DNA from: a phage
Sequence record: PZ502447.1
DNA length: 46,837 nt
Strand: one strand, 5' to 3'
Numbering within the stretch: the stretch's first letter is position 1; each line of letters begins with the position of its first letter. Below, in pieces: positions 9,916-46,837 of this stretch. A program made the translations under genes and the position numbers. A model generated the notes under the pieces. The model saw nothing but the letters and a program-made list of their open reading frames with translations. It was not told the DNA's origin and ran no database searches.

Positions 9916-10422
9916 TTACGCTCTCGTATTTGGGTAGCCTTTATTTTCAGAGCCATGATTTTCATGATATCCGTTCAATTTGTCATACTGTGACCTTGCC
10001 AATGCAGCCTCCTCTATAGTGTCCTTGTAGCATATGAAGACTGTTTTACCAAACTCCATAGCCTGAACAAGCCATCTATTCTCTCTTTTGCACCAGCTTA
10101 CACCGTTTATTCCGCTTTTATTTCTTGATGATAGTGATCTGTTATTTGAGTTCTCTTTATTGCTTACTAACCTTAGGTTCTCTATTCTATTGTCACTTCT
10201 ATTTTGGTTTATGTGATCTATGTACATGCCTTTAGGGATTGATCCATTGTGCATCTCCCACACCACCCTGTGACACCTGTATGCTTTTTGTCTATACTTT
10301 AGTATCACATAGCCAAATTTATCAACTCTTCCAGCCACCTCTCCAACCTTTGATACATTTGCTACTTTTACCTTTCTTATTAAAAGCCCGTCTCTATATT
10401 CAAAAATATCATGCCAATTCAT
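9916..10422 (-). CDS. HNH homing endonuclease (AP2-HNH type)
   Basis: 168 aa; HNH core IDHINQNRSDNRIENLR; N-terminus MNWHDIFEYRDG shared with the HNH at 28006; strongly AT-rich; inserted between the terminase subunit genes. Confidence 0.85.
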   Translation of the reverse strand: MNWHDIFEYRDGLLIRKVKVANVSKVGEVAGRVDKFGYVILKYRQKAYRCHRVVWEMHNGSIPKGMYIDHINQNRSDNRIENLRLVSNKENSNNRSLSSRNKSGINGVSWCKRENRWLVQAMEFGKTVFICYKDTIEEAALARSQYDKLNGYHENHGSENKGYPNTRA

Positions 10423-11680: not shown

Positions 11681-11756
11681 TGGTGTTCCGCACTGGACTC
11701 GAACCAGTAACTAAGACTTAGGAGGTCTTTGCGTTATCCTGTTACGCCAGCAGAAC
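11681..11756 (-). tRNA. tRNA-Arg (anticodon CCU)
   Basis: 76 nt on minus strand folds as a cloverleaf: acceptor GUUCUGC/GCGGAAC (one G-U), U8, D-stem GCGU/ACGC with GG in the D-loop, anticodon stem AAGAC/GUCUU, loop CUCCUAA (U33, CCU, A37), T-arm ACUGG-UUCGAGU-CCAGU, discriminator A, encoded CCA. Confidence 0.8.
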
Positions 11757-13208: not shown

Positions 13209-13631
13209 TCAGATTTTGTTAATTTGCTCAAACTTCTCAAACCAGAAAACAACTGGATCCTCCACTATGGAGATGAGGCCGAACCGCTCTGCCGTGCGAA
13301 AATTCATGCTGCTCTTACGCCCGCGAGCGACTTGAAGAGACACCTGTTCCCTGAACATTTCAAGGGAATAGCAAGTTTTCATGAGGTTGCATGGAGCACA
13401 TGCAGGGTAAAGGTTTTCCATTCGATCAGCTTGTGGTCGATTAAACTCACCTGTCGCCTTCAGCTTGAAAGTTCCTTTCTCCGCTGCCTTCATGCATACC
13501 TCAGATTTACGTAGCACCGGTTCAACATGGTCAGCATGCCAGCCTTTCTCAGGTAGTTCACACCCACAATAAGCGCAGCGACCACCGAACTTGCCCTTCA
13601 ACTCTTCCCTTTGAGATTTGCTTAATTTCAT
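13209..13631 (-). CDS. HNH endonuclease (classic zinc-finger HNH)
   Basis: 140 aa; CAYCGC...HADHVEP...CAPCN motif arrangement of the HNH fold. Confidence 0.75.
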   Translation of the reverse strand: MKLSKSQREELKGKFGGRCAYCGCELPEKGWHADHVEPVLRKSEVCMKAAEKGTFKLKATGEFNRPQADRMENLYPACAPCNLMKTCYSLEMFREQVSLQVARGRKSSMNFRTAERFGLISIVEDPVVFWFEKFEQINKI

Positions 13632-13821: not shown

Positions 13822-13896
13822 CGTCAATTCCTCATCTCGTTTTGATGGGATAAGTATAACAACCTATCCCAATTCATGTTTATCAATTCGTGCTAT

Positions 13897-15884: not shown

Positions 15885-15974
15885 ATTCGTTACTCCTGAT
15901 TGGTTGCTCTTCGTTAAGATGAAACCATGGTATCATGAATATACGCGTTATCAAGTGTTATGTTGTGTTTATAT

Positions 15975-16030
15975 CTGCATTGGTTACGCTTTTTGACCTC
16001 TCAGCCCAGCTATAGCTGGTGTAATTACCC
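15975..16030. repeat. duplicated control-region block 1 (copy A) with perfect palindrome CCAGCTATAGCTGG
   Basis: ATTGGTTACGCTTTTTGAC...GCCCAGCTATAGCTGG; near-identical block at 35223-35280. The 14 bp perfect palindrome is at 16006-16019. Confidence 0.6.
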
Positions 16031-16145
16031 TGTGTAAGATTTTACGCGGATTCGCCGGGGGTATGCATATGTATCTATATAGATAAAATTAGTAGTTTTC
16101 ATAGAAAAACTATCGACCCATCCATACGACCAATCTACACCATAT

Positions 16146-16212
16146 ACATACATATATATAATAATAATAATAATATAGTAAAAGGTTGATATATATAGAT
16201 ATTATTATGTAA
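16146..16212. repeat. duplicated control-region block 2 (copy A) with (TAA)n microsatellite
   Basis: ATATATATAATAATAATAATA...AGTAAAAGGTTGATATATATAGATATT..ATGTAAC; near-identical block at 35404-35468, at the same roughly 120 bp spacing from block 1. Confidence 0.6.
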
Positions 16213-16483
16213 CCATTGCGTAATCTCGCGTGGTAGGCGTGTATGATTCTTCGGAAGCGCACCTCATATACACACCATAACTTCGATAACGTGTATATCC
16301 AAATTGGCTCAGCAAGAATCAAAATCAACTTGTATGGTAGTTCATCCACCATTCATTCACCCCACATCAATCATTGCAAATTCTGCAACAATCAAAAACA
16401 TCATTGCATTCCATGCAATATTGCTATATGTGCAATAATCATGATAATCATTGCAATAGCTGCAACAATAGATAAATCCAACG

Positions 16484-17314: not shown

Positions 17315-17373
17315 AACTCACCGCCACGGATGGCGTATATTTACTCCATCGAAACGAAAGAGAGCAAGAGATC
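17297..17373 (+). promoter_or_regulatory. conserved promoter module
   Basis: AATAGCACTAATTGCTAAAAC, 22 nt, TATATT, then leader CCATCGAAACGAAAGAGAG, then ATG at 17374. Confidence 0.55.
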
Positions 17374-18091: not shown

Positions 18092-18150
18092 TAATGCATT
18101 ATAAGCGGCTATTGATATAATGGCCGCTCATAACAACACGGAGAGAAGTA
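18077..18150 (+). promoter_or_regulatory. conserved promoter module
   Basis: AATAGCACTAATTGATAATGC, then TATAAT, then leader CTCATAACAACACGGAGAGAAG, then ATG at 18151. Confidence 0.55.
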
Positions 18151-24695: not shown

Positions 24696-24890
24696 TTATA
24701 CCTCATCAAATTTTTCGCCGAATTCGTTTTTAACAGTTTCCAGATCATATTTGTAAGTTGGGCTAACTTCGAATGCATATGTGCAGTCTTCAATGTCAAC
24801 CAAAACATAACCATCTTCAGTTACTTGCATCTCGTAGATGTAGCCAGTCTTGCGTGATTCGTAGAATTTACCAGTATAGATAGTAGCCAT
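24696..24890 (-). CDS. hypothetical protein
   Basis: 64 aa ORF directly downstream of a full promoter module and conserved leader. Confidence 0.5.
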   Translation of the reverse strand: MATIYTGKFYESRKTGYIYEMQVTEDGYVLVDIEDCTYAFEVSPTYKYDLETVKNEFGEKFDEV

Positions 24891-24974
24891 TTTCTTTCTC
24901 TCTTTGTGTGTTTCGTTTCGATGAGTTTATAATACACCAACTCACCAATTCGTCTTTAGCAATTCGTGCTATTT
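24891..24974 (-). promoter_or_regulatory. conserved promoter module
   Basis: Minus-strand AATAGCACGAATTGCTAAAGAC, 22 nt, TATTAT, then leader CATCGAAACGAAACACACAAAGAGAG, then ATG at 24890. Confidence 0.55.
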
Positions 24975-25389: not shown

Positions 25390-27384
25390 TCAATCCTCCA
25401 TCGTAAATGATTTGTTGGCGATAATATCTTGCGACTTCTGATTCTTGCGGTGCGTAATCCTTAGCGGCGCACGGAAAAGATGTGCATTTGTCATAATCAT
25501 TTTAGCATTACGCAATCTGCCAATCCTAAAAGCCTCAGTACTGTTCTCGATGTGAGTTGAGCAAAACGCCTTCCATTTGACAGAACAAACACGATGGTCT
25601 GACTCCGGGAAGAATGTTTCATAAGCTCGGAACTTATCTCCACTATGAGCCATTACCTCATATGAAGCAACGATCCCTGACTGGTTTTTTGTCAACCCAA
25701 TCTTGAAGTCATAAACTCTCAACCAGTCCCCTTTCCGATACATTTTTCCAGATAGCTTTGCATTTGGGTCTATCAGCATCTCTCCGCAGCAGCGGCAGTT
25801 CTTTGCTGCAACGTCATTTTTCTCTCCGCAACCTTTCTTAATGATAACTTTCGTCTGCGGGTCCTCAATATCTTCGCAAAGACGGAACTGAAAAAAATGC
25901 TCGCATCGTTTACCGTCAATCACATTATTACAGCGCCGTGCGAAAGGAGAATTCTCATAAGAACATGCTGGGCAAATTCTTGGTTCATCACCCCCTTTCC
26001 TGGATGACTTAAACTTCTGGTCCTGAACCTCTTCTATAATTGGGTCGAAGTAGAGTTCTGCCATATCGTCAAGCGTCCCGGCAAAATCAAGAACAACGTG
26101 GTCCTCTTTTATCATTCCAGCTTCTTTGTGCTTCTTCTTAAGAATTCGCATACCGCGACCAAGCAACTGAATGAGCAACGTTATGCTGCCAACCTTCCTT
26201 AGGATAATGCTTGTATCCCACGGCGGCACGTTGACGCCCGTTGTGAGGCAACCAATCTGAAATATGAATTTATATTCTCCATTTGCCGCCTTATCAAGTA
26301 TCTCTCTGCGTTTTTTTTCACCAGTGGAGTCAGTAACTATCGCCCACGTCACACCATCTGGTAGCGCTGCCGCCGCCTCTTCACAATGCTGCTTTCCGGC
26401 GCAGGTTACCAATGCCGCATTCCTTGTTTCCATGAATTTAGCAGCAAAGCCCATTATCTTTTGGGTCATGGTCTGGTTTTCATGAATCTTCGCAGCCATA
26501 GCGTCCATTTCTTTTTTACTGAAGTCTTTAACTCCATCACTTCCATCTGGAGCAAACTCGCTAAGGTCATAACCCAAATCACCAACCTCGCCGTAAACGG
26601 TCGGAACCACGAACCCCAAGTCAACCAGGTAACTGGTTGGTACTTGCATTACCGTTTTACGCCAGAAACCACGAACATTCGGATTGCTAACTACAATGTG
26701 GTCATTGTTCCGGTAAGGGCTACCAGTTAAACCGAAGATGCGTAGCTCTCGACCATACTTCTCTTTGCAGCGTCTCTTCATCTCAGTAATGATTAGCGTG
26801 TACTGCGCACGACCAGTTCCGAGCAATCCGGTATTCACTCCATCCTTGAAAACCATCTCACCCTTCTTCGTGCTCATCTGCTCGAATGTTTCCTCGTTCT
26901 CTTCAGCTTCTACGATATCCATATGGTCAACCATATGACATTCATCTATCGCAATAACGGCAGGAACATAGTCACCAAGGCCCTTAAACAAGCCGTTAGC
27001 AGCTGTGCCCTCACTAGCCACTATGGTTGGGTAGTAAACTGATTTAACGTTAAGGCCAGCGCAATAGACGCTATTACGGATGCCGAAGTTACGAAGCTCT
27101 TCAGCGTTCTGGCTGATAATTTCTGACTGGCGAGAAAGCACCATGTAAGGAAGCCCAAGCTGTTCCATTCGTTTCCCAATCATGGCGAGTATAATTGTCT
27201 TACCAGCAGACACCGACAGGTCTGCGATGAATGGTGCTTCATACTTGCCAATGGCCTTGCCAATAGCGTCAAATGTCACGCACTGGAATTCGTAAGGCGT
27301 TATGTCTCCAAACTGGTAATCTTTCTGAATCTGTTTAATTTTCTCTTTATCAAAGTTGGCTACTAAGCGCTCTACTGGAAGCAT
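25390..27384 (-). CDS. ATP-dependent SF2 helicase (DExH box) with C-terminal Cys-rich zinc-ribbon region
   Basis: 664 aa; Walker A SVSAGKT, DExH box AIDECH, C-terminal CPAC...C..C and C.CCG clusters. Confidence 0.75.
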   Translation of the reverse strand: MLPVERLVANFDKEKIKQIQKDYQFGDITPYEFQCVTFDAIGKAIGKYEAPFIADLSVSAGKTIILAMIGKRMEQLGLPYMVLSRQSEIISQNAEELRNFGIRNSVYCAGLNVKSVYYPTIVASEGTAANGLFKGLGDYVPAVIAIDECHMVDHMDIVEAEENEETFEQMSTKKGEMVFKDGVNTGLLGTGRAQYTLIITEMKRRCKEKYGRELRIFGLTGSPYRNNDHIVVSNPNVRGFWRKTVMQVPTSYLVDLGFVVPTVYGEVGDLGYDLSEFAPDGSDGVKDFSKKEMDAMAAKIHENQTMTQKIMGFAAKFMETRNAALVTCAGKQHCEEAAAALPDGVTWAIVTDSTGEKKRREILDKAANGEYKFIFQIGCLTTGVNVPPWDTSIILRKVGSITLLIQLLGRGMRILKKKHKEAGMIKEDHVVLDFAGTLDDMAELYFDPIIEEVQDQKFKSSRKGGDEPRICPACSYENSPFARRCNNVIDGKRCEHFFQFRLCEDIEDPQTKVIIKKGCGEKNDVAAKNCRCCGEMLIDPNAKLSGKMYRKGDWLRVYDFKIGLTKNQSGIVASYEVMAHSGDKFRAYETFFPESDHRVCSVKWKAFCSTHIENSTEAFRIGRLRNAKMIMTNAHLFRAPLRITHRKNQKSQDIIANKSFTMED

Positions 27385-27473
27385 TTTAAATATCCCGACA
27401 GTTTGTTAGTTCGTTGCATTGCTGTATAATAACAATTATCGAACCTATTGTTTAACAAAAAATGCTATTGAGG
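27385..27473 (-). promoter_or_regulatory. variant promoter module in divergent region
   Basis: Minus-strand AATAGCATTTTTTGTTAAAC, about 21 nt, TATTATAC, then leader to helicase ATG at 27384; the plus-strand gene at 27481 starts 8 nt beyond the motif. Confidence 0.4.
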
Positions 27474-27480
27474 TAATGAG

Positions 27481-27954
27481 ATGTGTGAAATTGACAAGCG
27501 AACTATCAACGGCAATAACGGAACCATCCGCACGCAAGACAAGAAACAGCGCAAACGACCGTCAGGCTACTACGTATTGAAAGATGAAGTAAAGGCTGGG
27601 CTACGAGCTCGTCTGGAGATGGTTCTTGATTTCTACGGCACGAAGGCCAATATCGCCAAGCAGTTAAATGTATCTCACCAGACTGTAGAGCAATGGTTTG
27701 ATCGCGGGATGATTTCGGCTCGAGGTGCCCAGAGGGCTCACAATGCATACAAGCGAAATAAGGAAGGCTTTAGAGCTACGTTCTGCCGACCAGACCTGCA
27801 ATTCGACGGAAACGGTAAGCCATTAACGCTTAGATGCAAGAAACGCCATATGCTGCGGGTTGTTACAGAAGCTGAACTAGCAACAAAGCCACCATGTCGA
27901 CCATGGCGCAAGAATAAGATTGCCAACGAAGCAGCACGAAAAGCTAAAGATTAA
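27481..27954 (+). CDS. HTH DNA-binding protein (putative transcriptional regulator)
   Basis: 157 aa, ATG with GAGGTAA SD; helix-turn-helix-like segment TKANIAKQLNVSHQTVEQWFDRG; basic N- and C-termini. Confidence 0.5.
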   Translation: MCEIDKRTINGNNGTIRTQDKKQRKRPSGYYVLKDEVKAGLRARLEMVLDFYGTKANIAKQLNVSHQTVEQWFDRGMISARGAQRAHNAYKRNKEGFRATFCRPDLQFDGNGKPLTLRCKKRHMLRVVTEAELATKPPCRPWRKNKIANEAARKAKD

Positions 27955-28005
27955 ATAATTGGATGTGCCATAATCGGTACATCCTTTTTTATTGGGGAGA
28001 AGAAA

Positions 28006-28485
28006 ATGAACTGGCATGATTATTTTTACTATGTAGATGGCAAATTGCATTGGAAGATTAGCACTGCAAGACGTGTTAAGGTTGGCGATGAGTGCAACTC
28101 ACTATCTACATCTGGCTATTACAAAGTGTCTGTTAATGGCTTTAGGACTTATGTACATAGAGTTGTGTGGGAGATGTTTAATGGAGAACTTCAAAATGGC
28201 GACTACATTGATCATATAAACCATAACAAATTAGATAACAGAATAGAAAACCTAAGAGTAACAACAAATCAAGGTAACTCAAGAAATTGCAAGCTTAGCG
28301 TTTTATCAACAACTGGTTATTGTGGAGTAGCAAAGCTAAATCACGGAAAATTTAAGGCTCACATCAAGGTTGACGGTAAGCAGCTACACCTTGGGAACTT
28401 CGATACTCCAGAGCAGGCGTATAAAGTAAGAATTGAAGCAGAGAGAAAATGCAACTTTCACGAAAATCACGGGTTAAGCAAATGA
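28006..28485 (+). CDS. HNH homing endonuclease (AP2-HNH type)
   Basis: 159 aa; IDHINHNKLDNRIENLR HNH core; N-terminus MNWHDYFYYVDGKLHWK paralogous to the HNH at 9916; inserted directly upstream of primase with an ATGA overlap. Confidence 0.85.
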   Translation: MNWHDYFYYVDGKLHWKISTARRVKVGDECNSLSTSGYYKVSVNGFRTYVHRVVWEMFNGELQNGDYIDHINHNKLDNRIENLRVTTNQGNSRNCKLSVLSTTGYCGVAKLNHGKFKAHIKVDGKQLHLGNFDTPEQAYKVRIEAERKCNFHENHGLSK

Positions 28486-29405
28486 ATTACGATAAGAATG
28501 AAGTTATACCTAAGATGGCCGGATTGTGGAAATCATTTTATGCAAAGGAACTTGGTTGGAATGATAGACACCTAAGTAAGAAGCACGGACCATGCCCATA
28601 CTGCTTTGGCACTGACAGATTCAGATTTACCGACGAAATAGGCAGTGAAAAAGGGAATGGCGCGGCAGTTTGTTCGAAATGCGGAAGTGACTCCGGTATA
28701 GGATGGGTCATGAAGTGCACTGGATCGTCCTTCGCAGATTCAGTAAATTTGCTTGGTGACTGGCTGAACTTAACACCAATTGAGGTTATAGTTAAAGCAA
28801 ACAAGCAAGCATCAAGAACCCAGCTCTACAAAATGGGCGCCCAGATTGACCACGAAAGATGTTTAGAGATTATGGAAAGAACAGAAAGAGTAGAATCAAC
28901 TCCACTCAGTATATACGAGGGTATCTATAGCGAATTTGGTTTTGATGTTGGCAGGACGAAATCAGGCGAACTAATACACGCAGTACCGTGCTTTATGGCT
29001 TATAGTGACGGCATATCAGATGATATGTGCAATGTAATGTTTATCAATGAAGATGGAGATGTTAGCTATGCTGCAAAAGATTATACTCGCCAGTCTGTTT
29101 CTATTATTGGCACCTTTAAAGATGATGAGTACGCTTATCTGGTCGATAATTGGATTGATGGTGTTCGCGTTCATCTTGCTACTGGAAATCGCTGCGTGCT
29201 TGTTTGCCACTCCAGCTACAACATGGAAATGGTTGCTTATGCGCTTATGAACTACAAGTTACGCGTCGCTTGTACTCGCAACTCTTTTGATTTACTTGCC
29301 GTTGCTGACGATCGCAATCTTGATATTGTAATTCCAAATGATGGTAATTTTTTCAAGTCAGGCATAAGAAAGAGAATATACAAGGCAAACGAATTACTAG
29401 ACTAA
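28482..29405 (+). CDS. DNA primase (zinc-finger type)
   Basis: CxxC...CxxC zinc-binding motif (CPYCFG...CSKCGS) near the N-terminus. Start placed at ATG MNYDKNEV overlapping the HNH stop; the ORF track starts it 33 nt earlier. Confidence 0.55.
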   Translation: MNYDKNEVIPKMAGLWKSFYAKELGWNDRHLSKKHGPCPYCFGTDRFRFTDEIGSEKGNGAAVCSKCGSDSGIGWVMKCTGSSFADSVNLLGDWLNLTPIEVIVKANKQASRTQLYKMGAQIDHERCLEIMERTERVESTPLSIYEGIYSEFGFDVGRTKSGELIHAVPCFMAYSDGISDDMCNVMFINEDGDVSYAAKDYTRQSVSIIGTFKDDEYAYLVDNWIDGVRVHLATGNRCVLVCHSSYNMEMVAYALMNYKLRVACTRNSFDLLAVADDRNLDIVIPNDGNFFKSGIRKRIYKANELLD

Positions 29406-29426: not shown

Positions 29427-29492
29427 ATACCTGAAAGATGATACAATCCACTTTAGCAATTAGTGCTACTTTACAAATGGAGACTTTACACA

Positions 29493-32051: not shown

Positions 32052-32537
32052 TCAGTAGTAAAGATGTTCCGCTTGCTTTCTTGCCTTTAATGCGGACTCA
32101 AACGTTTCGAATCGTCCTAGATGTATTTTTCTACCGTTTACAGTTATGGACGCATCGTATTTTCCCTTATTAAAATGTACACCACCGCACCCCGTCTTAT
32201 TGTTTACTCTTACACCTAAATTGTGCATGTTGCCTGTTCTGTTGGTTTTCAGTAGGTTTGCGTAGGCATTATTTGCTCTATTCCTGTCAATATGGTCAAT
32301 TTCAATATCACCACTCAAAGAACCTTCAACGAAGGCAACCGCAAGCCTGTGAGCTTGGAATCGCTCTCCGTTGATGTTTATGCCTATGTATCCATTCCTA
32401 AGCGAACCTGAATTCGAACCTACATCTACACGCCGCGATGTGGGAATAATCCATGAAAAGATCCCTGATTCTGTACCGTAGGATAGGTGACGCATTGCTG
32501 CGTCAACCACATCTTTTGTTATGTCTTTGTATTTCAT
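32052..32537 (-). CDS. HNH homing endonuclease
   Basis: 161 aa; IDHIDRNRANN HNH core and NKTGCGGVHFNKGKYDASITVNGRKIHLGRFETFESA AP2-like tail. Confidence 0.8.
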   Translation of the reverse strand: MKYKDITKDVVDAAMRHLSYGTESGIFSWIIPTSRRVDVGSNSGSLRNGYIGININGERFQAHRLAVAFVEGSLSGDIEIDHIDRNRANNAYANLLKTNRTGNMHNLGVRVNNKTGCGGVHFNKGKYDASITVNGRKIHLGRFETFESALKARKQAEHLYY

Positions 32538-33009: not shown

Positions 33010-33660
33010 TTAGAATGTATCGATTTCTTGAGATTGCACTTCAACTTTTTCTTCTTGAACAGACTTTTGTGCAACCTGCTTAGGTTTTGCTGGGTTAAAG
33101 CCATTAGTTGCATTGGCCTGAATCTCTGCCTTGCGCTCGATAATGTGAGGCTCAAGCACTAACCAGCCGGCTGAATCAAGTGACTGCTTCGCCTCTTTGT
33201 AAACATCACGGAGGTCATCAAGAGTACTGCACTTAGCCAAGTCTTTCTTGAATGAGTTGATGCCTTTAACTGCTAACTGACCATCATCATCTGCCTGGCT
33301 TAAACCTAACGCCGCTGTGATTGCGTAACGGCGAGCGTATGTAAGTGATGACCCATAACCTTGAGCATCTTGCTTACTGATTGGGACTATGGTCAGGAAA
33401 CTAACCCACTCTCCAGATTCTGCATGGTAAACTGTTGTTTCAACCTTAATACGAGTGCTTACATCATCATCAATCATCGACTGAAACATCACCAGTCCGC
33501 TATCAGCCAATCCTGGCTCTACAGCTGCTAAAACATCATCTAAAGTAGCGTACTTATTCTTGAGGTGTGAGTTCTGCTTAGACTTTTCAGCCTTAGCAAA
33601 CTTTGATTTAGCCTCGAATAACGCCTTCAATACTTGCTTGTTTTGCTCAGAAGTTTTCAT
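33010..33660 (-). CDS. erf: Erf-family single-strand annealing protein
   Basis: About 216 aa from ATG MKTSEQ (GGGGA SD; the ORF-track start is a GTG inside the promoter -10). Erf-like core ATLDDVLAAVEPGLADSGL. Confidence 0.7.
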   Translation of the reverse strand: MKTSEQNKQVLKALFEAKSKFAKAEKSKQNSHLKNKYATLDDVLAAVEPGLADSGLVMFQSMIDDDVSTRIKVETTVYHAESGEWVSFLTIVPISKQDAQGYGSSLTYARRYAITAALGLSQADDDGQLAVKGINSFKKDLAKCSTLDDLRDVYKEAKQSLDSAGWLVLEPHIIERKAEIQANATNGFNPAKPKQVAQKSVQEEKVEVQSQEIDTF

Positions 33661-33737
33661 TCCCCATCTCTCTTTCGTTTCGATGGGGTAATGATACCCC
33701 ACCTGTTAATTTTGTCTTTAGCAATTAGTGCTATTTT
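33661..33737 (-). promoter_or_regulatory. conserved promoter module for recombination genes
   Basis: Minus-strand AATAGCACTAATTGCTAAAGAC, 22 nt, TATCAT, then leader CCCATCGAAACGAAAGAGAG, then ATG of erf; overlaps the exonuclease 3' end. Confidence 0.55.
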
Positions 33738-35090: not shown

Positions 35091-35222
35091 TACTCTATCT
35101 CTCTACGGTTGTTTTCTTTCGATGCGTTAATGATGCCGCACGCAAGACACACAGTCCAATTGGTATCACCGATTAATTAATCAAGTATACGCGTATAAAT
35201 CCGTAACTACGTGTAGACATTT

Positions 35223-35280
35223 CTATTGGTTACGTTTTTCACTGCCTTAGCCCAGCTATAGCTCAATGTAAATGGTGCGT
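35223..35280. repeat. duplicated control-region block 1 (copy B)
   Basis: ATTGGTTACGTTTTTCAC...GCCCAGCTATAGCT, matching 15975-16030 (the palindrome is partly degenerate here). Confidence 0.6.
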
Positions 35281-35403
35281 ATATCGTGTATACCGATCTT
35301 GGCGGATGGTGCATAGGTATGGGTGCCGCGCAATACTGTATAAAATCACATGATATAAAAATTATAACCGGAACACTCAAGAACAGTAGTTACATGATAT
35401 ACA

Positions 35404-35468
35404 CAGTAATATATATAATAATAATAATAAGAGTAAAAGGTTGATATATATAGATATTTTAATGTAAC
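35404..35468. repeat. duplicated control-region block 2 (copy B) with (TAA)n microsatellite
   Basis: ATATATAATAATAATAATAAGAGTAAAAGGTTGATATATATAGATATTTTAATGTAAC, matching 16146-16212. Confidence 0.6.
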
Positions 35469-35554
35469 TATGGCGTATCAAGGCGTAACTAGGCGTATAC
35501 GATTTCCCGCGGATGCATATGGTATACATCGAGTTACATCGGTTACGTGTAACC

Positions 35555-46783: not shown

Positions 46784-46837
46784 TTTCGTTTCGATGAATG
46801 AACTATACAGCAATCCGCGATTTGGTCTTTAACAAAA
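46784..46837 (-). promoter_or_regulatory. conserved promoter module spanning the window junction
   Basis: Leader CATCGAAACGAAATGAGA at 46784-46800 and TATAGT at 46801-46807; the upstream motif GTCTTTAACAAAAAGTGCTATCAAT is split between 46825-46837 and 1-12. Confidence 0.5.

Follow-up and report, generated by a model that had tools for sequence, protein, structure and literature searches.

A conserved Cro-like gene at a divergent promoter switch and its possible link to the 21-bp dyad of T1-like phages

Class II activation combined with autoregulation is known from lambda cI at PRM/OR2, from CRP or FNR at -41.5, and from Mor and C of phage Mu. T1-like phages often contaminate laboratories and are frequent candidates for therapy. 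Almost nothing is known of how they programme transcription: the genome papers in print offer only a handful of sigma-70 promoters and an unexplained 21-nt repeat. In the re-annotation of phage TLS (German et al. 2024, PMC11447400), 18 intergenic copies of this repeat, aaATAGCACnnnTTGnTAAAA, were reported and its presence in T1, Rtp and Rogue1 was noted. Only three sigma-70 promoters were found in TLS, including P57 of gp57, and the authors left open whether the repeat is a stoperator, an enhancer site or a UP element (PMC11447400). Which protein, then, reads the repeat? Here we address this question in sequence record PZ502447.1, the complete, circularly permuted genome of a T1-like siphophage (Drexlerviridae, Braunvirinae), analysed over its whole length of 46,837 bp (the window). 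The gene in question, called the regulator gene below, encodes a protein of 157 amino acids (aa) and is flanked by two copies of a 21-bp dyad, which is the repeat as it occurs in this genome. Tentatively, and at somewhat below an even chance, we read this protein as one that recognises the dyad throughout the genome, activating the dyad promoters and repressing itself.

The regulator gene and its divergent promoters

The features of the locus are as follows (PWM, position weight matrix; ORF, open reading frame).

27481-27954, + strand: regulator gene, 157 aa, with an ATG start; from the ORF listing and from profile and fold matches
27470-27473, + strand: Shine-Dalgarno sequence GAGG of the regulator gene, read from the sequence; 8-11 nt before the ATG and adjoining the dyad
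27403-27430, + strand: P_reg, the regulator promoter, sigma-70-type, TTGTTA-16-TATAAT, a 10/12 match
27426-27454, - strand: core of P_hel, the leftward helicase promoter, TAAACA-17-TGtTATTAT; helicase start at 27384
27445-27472, - strand: dyad copy with its core, TAGCATTTTTTGTTA, at 27467-27453; PWM score 27.3 bits
27927-27954, + strand: second dyad copy with its core at 27932-27946; PWM score 20.2 bits; over the last codons and the stop of the regulator gene
27961-27990, + strand: terminator, hairpin and T-run, from a terminator scan; predicted to end the regulator transcript

The regulator is almost certainly a real, conserved regulatory protein of the DNA-binding type. It is basic (pI 10.31; 36 K+R against 16 D+E) and matches phrog_2856 with an E-value of 4.7e-82, aa 1-157 falling on profile positions 8-165 of 165; its counterparts are CPTT1_056 in T1 and gp57 in TLS. 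An invariant basic N-terminal arm (aa 5-27) is followed by a Cro/YdaS-type helix-turn-helix (HTH) domain (aa 35-105) with helix 3 at aa 65-74, by a beta/loop element (aa 106-128), and by a variable C-terminal helix. The HTH matches in Pfam stay below the gathering thresholds, both for P22_Cro (23.2 against 30.2 bits, 6e-5) and for YdaS_toxin (20.3 bits against a cut-off of 30, 5e-4), and precomputed PF14549 or PF15943 matches exist for some homologues. The protein has the all-alpha, five-helix Cro fold. Fold searches of BFVD and PDB returned only family members and generic Cro/XRE proteins, with Cro repressors as the nearest relatives; none of these proteins has a function that was tested in a lytic phage. 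No homologue with a clearly non-regulatory role came to light. Helix 4 is followed by an RPDL motif, which short Cro/YdaS-like relatives share and which is therefore a feature of the fold, and the two parts that distinguish the family are the invariant N-terminal arm and the variable C-terminal tail. Many homologues carry an extra RIAxSTGE segment before the DKRxxNGNNG arm, which is missing from this regulator and its close relatives (aa 1-28, 27481-27564); a longer N-terminus is ruled out here because of an in-frame stop at 27469-27471.

A tblastn search with the regulator found 825 phage records, of which 789 align over 80% or more of the query; nearly all are genomes of Drexlerviridae size from Klebsiella, Escherichia, Shigella and Salmonella phages. 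Many of these records are already labelled "transcriptional regulator". An exhaustive profile search of 1.8 billion representatives gave only about 16 full-length clusters. Within the genome, a PHROG scan of 40 non-structural ORFs revealed no other transcription-regulation protein, and in the RefSeq annotations of EC3a and IME542 the homologue of the regulator is the only "transcriptional regulator".

The promoter of this gene differs in kind from those of its neighbours. P_reg, with a predicted transcription start at about 27437, is one of only two intergenic, dyad-free promoters in the genome that match at least 10/12, the other being at 16134 (+). Its equivalent is found in EC3a, SU57, T1, KLPN1, AAS23, L008 and L009, and is annotated as P57 in TLS. 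On the opposite strand, 96 bp from the regulator ORF, begins the helicase gene, the first of a leftward replication operon, whose sole evident promoter is the intergenic dyad promoter P_hel. The dyad copy at 27445-27472 lies 8 nt from the regulator ATG; read leftward, TATTAT (27431-27426) follows 21 nt past the dyad core, and then comes the helicase start at 27384. This -10 hexamer overlaps the -10 hexamer of P_reg (27425-27430). With the start of P_hel predicted at about 27419, the dyad would have its centre at about -42 of P_hel and would lie at about +16 to +31 of P_reg. The regulator is likely to act at this divergent P_reg/P_hel switch.

The hairpin of the terminator (27961-27984) has a fold energy of -16.1 kcal/mol, and its loop holds CATAAT (27969-27974), the -10 hexamer of the HNH/primase dyad promoter, 22 nt from the dyad core. 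Regulator transcripts are thus predicted to end in the very hairpin within which HNH/primase transcripts would begin. Both flanking replication operons, helicase on the left and HNH/primase on the right, start from dyad-class promoters. Because the regulator gene has its own canonical promoter and its own terminator, and because the flanking dyads serve the neighbouring operons, it forms, by its sequence, an insulated monocistronic unit with a promoter type unlike those of its neighbours.

This arrangement is widely conserved. The regulator gene lies between divergent helicase and primase genes in this genome, EC3a, SU57, IME542, T1, KLPN1, AAS23, L008 and L009. T1, KLPN1 and AAS23 have the order helicase (-), regulator (+), primase (+), with a leftward dyad in the 5' spacer and a rightward dyad on the stop codon; TLS is arranged alike, with DR11, DR10, P57 and T57, DR10 matching the stop-codon dyad. 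In T1, KLPN1, AAS23 and TLS the regulator has a canonical promoter, a -10 in common with the helicase promoter, and a terminator hairpin after the gene. L008 and L009, very divergent metagenomic relatives, keep the gene order, the gene's own promoter and the leftward dyad in the 5' leader; near the regulator stop codon, a rightward dyad gives a weak 12.2-bit match in L009 and none in L008. In a nine-phage alignment of the helicase-regulator spacer, the dyad is the only block of invariant columns, and the common TATAATA block is conserved in most of the nine phages (exact in 7/9). Phages of Escherichia, Klebsiella and Pantoea all carry the dyad in unchanged form. In the region around the regulator, identity reaches 90% with Escherichia phage phiA2-1 and 80-88% with Rtp-like, Guelphvirus and Christensenvirus phages.

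The genome-wide dyad and its promoters

The dyad has the consensus AAATAGCAC-nnn-TTGCTAAA and forms a near-palindrome, (T/A)TAGCA-N5-TGCTA(A/T), with half-sites 10 bp apart. A PWM built from 15 oriented copies, with matches taken at a threshold of at least 10 bits, gave 19 matches in the genome against 0-4 in shuffled sequence, and 18 promoters across the genome carry the dyad 22 nt upstream of the -10. Its placement is fixed. Among 85 strong dyad copies from 8 genomes, a TATAAT-like -10 hexamer follows the dyad core at 22 nt in 59/85 and at 23 nt in 13/85, and a control of random positions is flat. The -35 hexamers of the dyad promoters are mostly AAnAnn, with a few better ones such as ATGACA and TAAACA. 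With a transcription start predicted some 7 nt past the hexamer, the dyad would be centred near -42 over a mostly poor -35, which would correspond to the geometry of a class II activator.

These results largely bear out an earlier note on this DNA, which had pointed to a basic protein of 157 aa with an HTH-like segment, starting 8 nt after a promoter motif that faces the helicase. The ORF at 27481-27954 (+), with its ATG, GAGG and pI of 10.31, is a real and conserved gene and its HTH is of the Cro/cI kind; the motif at 27445-27472 is indeed oriented leftward, towards TATTAT and the helicase start at 27384, and it recurs across the genome at a fixed spacing to the -10. The note's picture of the promoters was right about the leftward helicase promoter and missed P_reg, the overlap of the -10 hexamers and the second repeat copy at 27927-27954.

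Several known elements were considered for the dyad and set aside. TTGCTA cannot serve as a -35 hexamer, as the spacer would be 22 nt. Sigma-54 promoters have the consensus TGGCAC-N5-TTGCW, with an invariant GG at -24 and GC at -12, 11 nt apart. In the dyad, TAGCAC-N3-TTGC has AG instead of GG, the spacing falls short by 2 nt, and a sigma-70 -10 accompanies the dyad at a fixed distance. A UP element was ruled out by the G/C at conserved dyad positions, and none of the IHF, Fis, CRP and FNR consensus sequences fits the dyad.

The dyad promoters have further features in common. Past the -10 of most of them lies a conserved leader start, CATCGAAACGA(A/G)AG, followed by a ribosome-binding site and a start codon; examples of the CATCGAAACGA leader are at 24890-24935, 33660-33700 and 17335-17365, and it is present in T1, KLPN1 and AAS23 too. 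This leader could be a signal for promoter escape, stability or translation. In addition, a short inverted repeat of variable sequence brackets or holds the -10 in nearly every dyad promoter, for example at 33690-33705 (GGGGTATCATTACCCC), 13850-13872 and 18100-18125. Most of these repeats have no T-run and so are not ordinary terminators; they might be processing or stability elements in read-through RNA, or might act on DNA.

Two dyad copies deserve separate mention. The genome ends, 46784-46837 and 1-12, join into the 18th copy (ATTGATAGCACTTTTTGTTAAAGACCAA, - strand, 24.8 bits), which is predicted to drive the tail-gene block; because the ends join in this way, the genome is complete and circularly permuted. 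The other copy stands in reverse orientation.

29446-29473, - strand: reverse-orientation dyad copy with no gene downstream, 20 nt before the tailspike ATG (29493)

It lies just downstream of a + strand TACAAT, an operator-like position, and the same arrangement is found in T1 (L004, 13912-13939) and in L009 (5068-5095).

What reads the dyad

If the regulator is the reader, the order of events would be as follows. Host RNA polymerase alone would make the regulator first, and the regulator would then bind the dyad as a dimer at half-sites 10 bp apart. Bound at -42, it would help polymerase onto the dyad promoters in the manner of a class II activator; bound at +16 to +31 of P_reg, and together with polymerase recruited to the overlapping P_hel, it would shut off its own synthesis. 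What speaks for this reading is the odd-one-out promoter of the gene, its insulation, the flanking dyads and the lack of another candidate; the promoter geometry of the dyad, the conservation of the layout and the palindrome with half-sites one helical turn apart count in its favour too. What counts against it is helix 3.

A fixed operator normally pairs with a fixed recognition helix. Here the exposed positions of helix 3 are the most variable of the regulator (H66, 3.77 bits of entropy; E70, 3.26; Q71, 2.77; Q67, 2.68). The helix reads SHQTVEQW in this genome, TPQAVEEW in EC3a, SNQTVQGW in T1, SIQVVQQW in KLPN1, SKQTINAW in AAS23, NLKTVWGW in the TLS type, and KRHRVARW and NPLEYREM in the most distant members, and the genomes of all these variants contain the same dyad. 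Across this genome, EC3a, IME542, T1, KLPN1, AAS23, TLS and the two metagenomic relatives, no co-variation of the dyad with helix 3 was found, as the dyad never changes in this set. An invariant dyad beside a variable helix 3 argues against readout by this helix. Other points weigh on the same side. Dyad promoters precede every gene class, including small, presumably early genes and structural operons, and therefore show no obvious temporal division; P_hel, with an extended -10 and a 4/6 -35, looks usable unaided; the outer parts of the dyad fit the consensus of E. coli Lrp at 11-12/15 in a post hoc comparison, so that a host factor is possible; and in the literature searched on T1, Rtp, Webervirus and Drexlerviridae, the repeat is described only in the TLS paper and no publication ties it to the regulator.

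Three options may account for this contrast: the arm gives specificity on an HTH scaffold, the protein binds elsewhere, or a conserved host protein reads the dyad. In the first, with helix 3 too variable, the invariant arm would have to contribute the specificity. This arm is basic and predicted to be unstructured, and seven of its residues (D5, R7, N10, G11, N12, R17 and R24) are identical in 38/38 sequences. It has no relative in PDB or Pfam, where the sole match was a chance one to cytochrome c6 (E 0.8). In its fullest form, the first option would make the regulator the master transcription factor of the T1 family, a Cro fold that reads the dyad mainly via the arm DKRxxNGNNGTxRGxD..R rather than helix 3, switching on about 18 promoters per genome from about -42 and its own overlapping promoter off. 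We regard this full form as doubtful.

The third option, in which a conserved host factor, Lrp or some other regulator of enterobacteria for instance, reads the dyad and the regulator is a local Cro-like repressor or autoregulator, is possible but rather unlikely. The regulator would then bind with low specificity, or its binding would be confined to the surroundings of early sigma-70 promoters, its own among them. A variable helix 3 facing an invariant dyad fits a binder other than this HTH, Cro repressors are the closest proteins by fold, and the constancy of the dyad among phages of Escherichia, Klebsiella and Pantoea is what a conserved host protein would produce. The SELEX (systematic evolution of ligands by exponential enrichment) consensus of E. 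coli Lrp is yAGhAwATTwTdCTr (PMC5554404). The dyad core fits its outer halves, the outer palindromic positions all agreeing and the central A/T core being mostly mismatched (again post hoc), but the strongly conserved CAC and TTG of the dyad are not accounted for by this consensus. The UP-element-like, enhancer-binding and stoperator roles proposed by the TLS authors (PMC11447400) also accord with this explanation. Within this explanation the dyad could alternatively be an intrinsic polymerase-contact element, but its conserved G/C positions are unlike an A/T-rich UP element. Against a local repressor, no phage-specific operator that co-varies with helix 3 was found in the spacers of the nine phages; only the dyad and the common -10 are conserved there. 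A host reader also leaves unexplained why only the regulator gene is insulated with a canonical promoter.

An improbable explanation is that the regulator is a replication accessory, which marks an origin or loads and bridges helicase and primase, its arm contacting phage or host replication proteins. The position between helicase and primase is strictly conserved in every lineage examined, an invariant arm suggests an invariant protein partner, and no origin-binding protein has been identified in the T1 family (PMC11447400). On the other hand, the 96-bp intergenic region has neither iterons nor AT-rich unwinding elements, AT-rich repeated regions lie elsewhere (16136-16222 and 35391-35477), and the gene is transcriptionally insulated from both replication operons instead of being co-expressed with them. 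Very improbable, finally, is an antiterminator acting on RNA or elongating polymerase, with an arm like the arginine-rich motif of lambda N or with lambda Q-like loading at dyad promoters, which would permit read-through of the many intrinsic terminators inside operons: T1-like genomes do have about 20 intergenic terminators within co-directional gene blocks, downstream of the dyad promoters comes the conserved leader CATCGAAACGA, a hairpin of variable sequence surrounds their -10, and the invariant arm combines basic residues with a predicted lack of structure, but the hairpins vary between promoters and lie mostly upstream of the predicted start site, and the regulator has no similarity to N or Q proteins, which makes the idea speculative.

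The earlier note's further suggestions can now be placed. The autoregulatory layout it proposed is present in so far as the gene is divergent and the promoters overlap; autoregulation itself would follow if the regulator binds the repeat. As for the protein being a candidate reader of the repeat, it is the only predicted transcription factor, and its recognition of the repeat is plausible, with a variable helix 3 facing an invariant repeat as the point against it. The novelty of the idea is smaller than it first looked, as public records and papers already contain both the gene annotation and the repeat. Compared with the papers searched, the link between regulator and repeat, the class II geometry, the switch with a common -10, the insulation, and the contrast between arm and helix are new.

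If the tentative reading is true, nearly all promoters of the family would be governed by a single small gene, which would explain the "missing promoters"; this gene would also provide a handle to engineer or shut down these phages, and a compact activator/promoter pair for synthetic biology. If the full form holds, with the arm reading the dyad, this would be the first regulatory circuit defined for a classical but neglected T-phage and would add a new way for a Cro scaffold to recognise DNA. If the regulator is not the reader, a repeat that stays constant from one host genus to the next suggests that the family depends on a conserved host factor, which would be an equally useful finding. An invariant DNA element beside a hypervariable recognition helix is a concrete and testable puzzle.

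Gene neighbourhood and comparison with known systems

The genes adjoining the regulator are the following.

25390-27384, - strand: ATP-dependent helicase gene, 664 aa; Helicase_C and phrog_16 matches, and synteny with annotated relatives
28006-28485, + strand: HNH homing endonuclease gene, between the regulator and primase genes; HNH_3 (3e-18) and phrog_99
28482-29405, + strand: DNA primase gene; Zn_Ribbon_Prim and phrog_510; orthologues of 307 aa

The primase probably starts at the second Met of the listed ORF (28449-29405). SU57, T1 and KLPN1 have no HNH gene at the junction of regulator and primase. This genome has four HNH homing-endonuclease genes (9916-10422, 13209-13631, 28006-28485 and 32052-32537), and the one at 28006 is a paralogue of that at 9916 (127-nt match, 72%, repeat I1). 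In the early-gene block, a tRNA-Arg with anticodon CCT lies at 11681-11756 (-); the annotation of EC3a has tRNA-Arg (TCT) at the equivalent place. The two flips of transcription direction carry paralogous divergent control regions of about 360 nt, at 15885-16245 and 35091-35450, which are 71% identical, and each of them includes 87 nt of AT-rich sequence that contains an (ATA)n run and TTGATATATATAGATATT. These regions probably correspond to the early promoters P01 and P51 of TLS, to replication origins, or to both.

Among known proteins, the regulator is closest to the all-alpha Cro/YdaS group (P22 Cro, Xfaso-1 Cro and N15 Cro; PF14549 and PF15943), below whose Pfam gathering thresholds it falls. 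Those proteins have neither its invariant 25-residue N-terminal arm nor its C-terminal extension. Unlike Cro, it comes from a strictly lytic phage and has no repressor partner, and within its family the recognition helix varies.

The middle promoters of T4 offer a parallel in another lytic phage, as a phage-specific element there also stands in for a good -35 hexamer, ahead of an ordinary sigma-70 -10. The MotA box, (t/a)(t/a)TGCTT(t/c)A, lacks dyad symmetry and has its centre at about -30, and MotA needs the co-factor AsiA. The right half of the dyad, TTGCTAAA, resembles the MotA box; unlike in T4, homologues of MotA and AsiA were not seen in the PHROG scans of the 40 non-structural ORFs.

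Class II systems would be similar in that the dyad is predicted to lie near -42 over a weak -35 and in that the candidate binder is a small phage HTH protein; likewise, occupancy of a single site would switch one promoter on and its divergent neighbour off. The regulator differs in having no sequence kinship to Mor/C, CRP or the cI activation patch. Furthermore, it is the two -10 hexamers themselves that overlap here.

The TLS system is the nearest of all. Its 21-nt direct repeat, aaATAGCACnnnTTGnTAAAA (PMC11447400), is the same element as the dyad, and gp57 is a homologue of the regulator that is likewise flanked by DR11, DR10, P57 and T57. The TLS paper draws no link between gp57 and the repeat, and the 22-nt spacing, the palindromic reading and the switch with a common -10 were worked out here.
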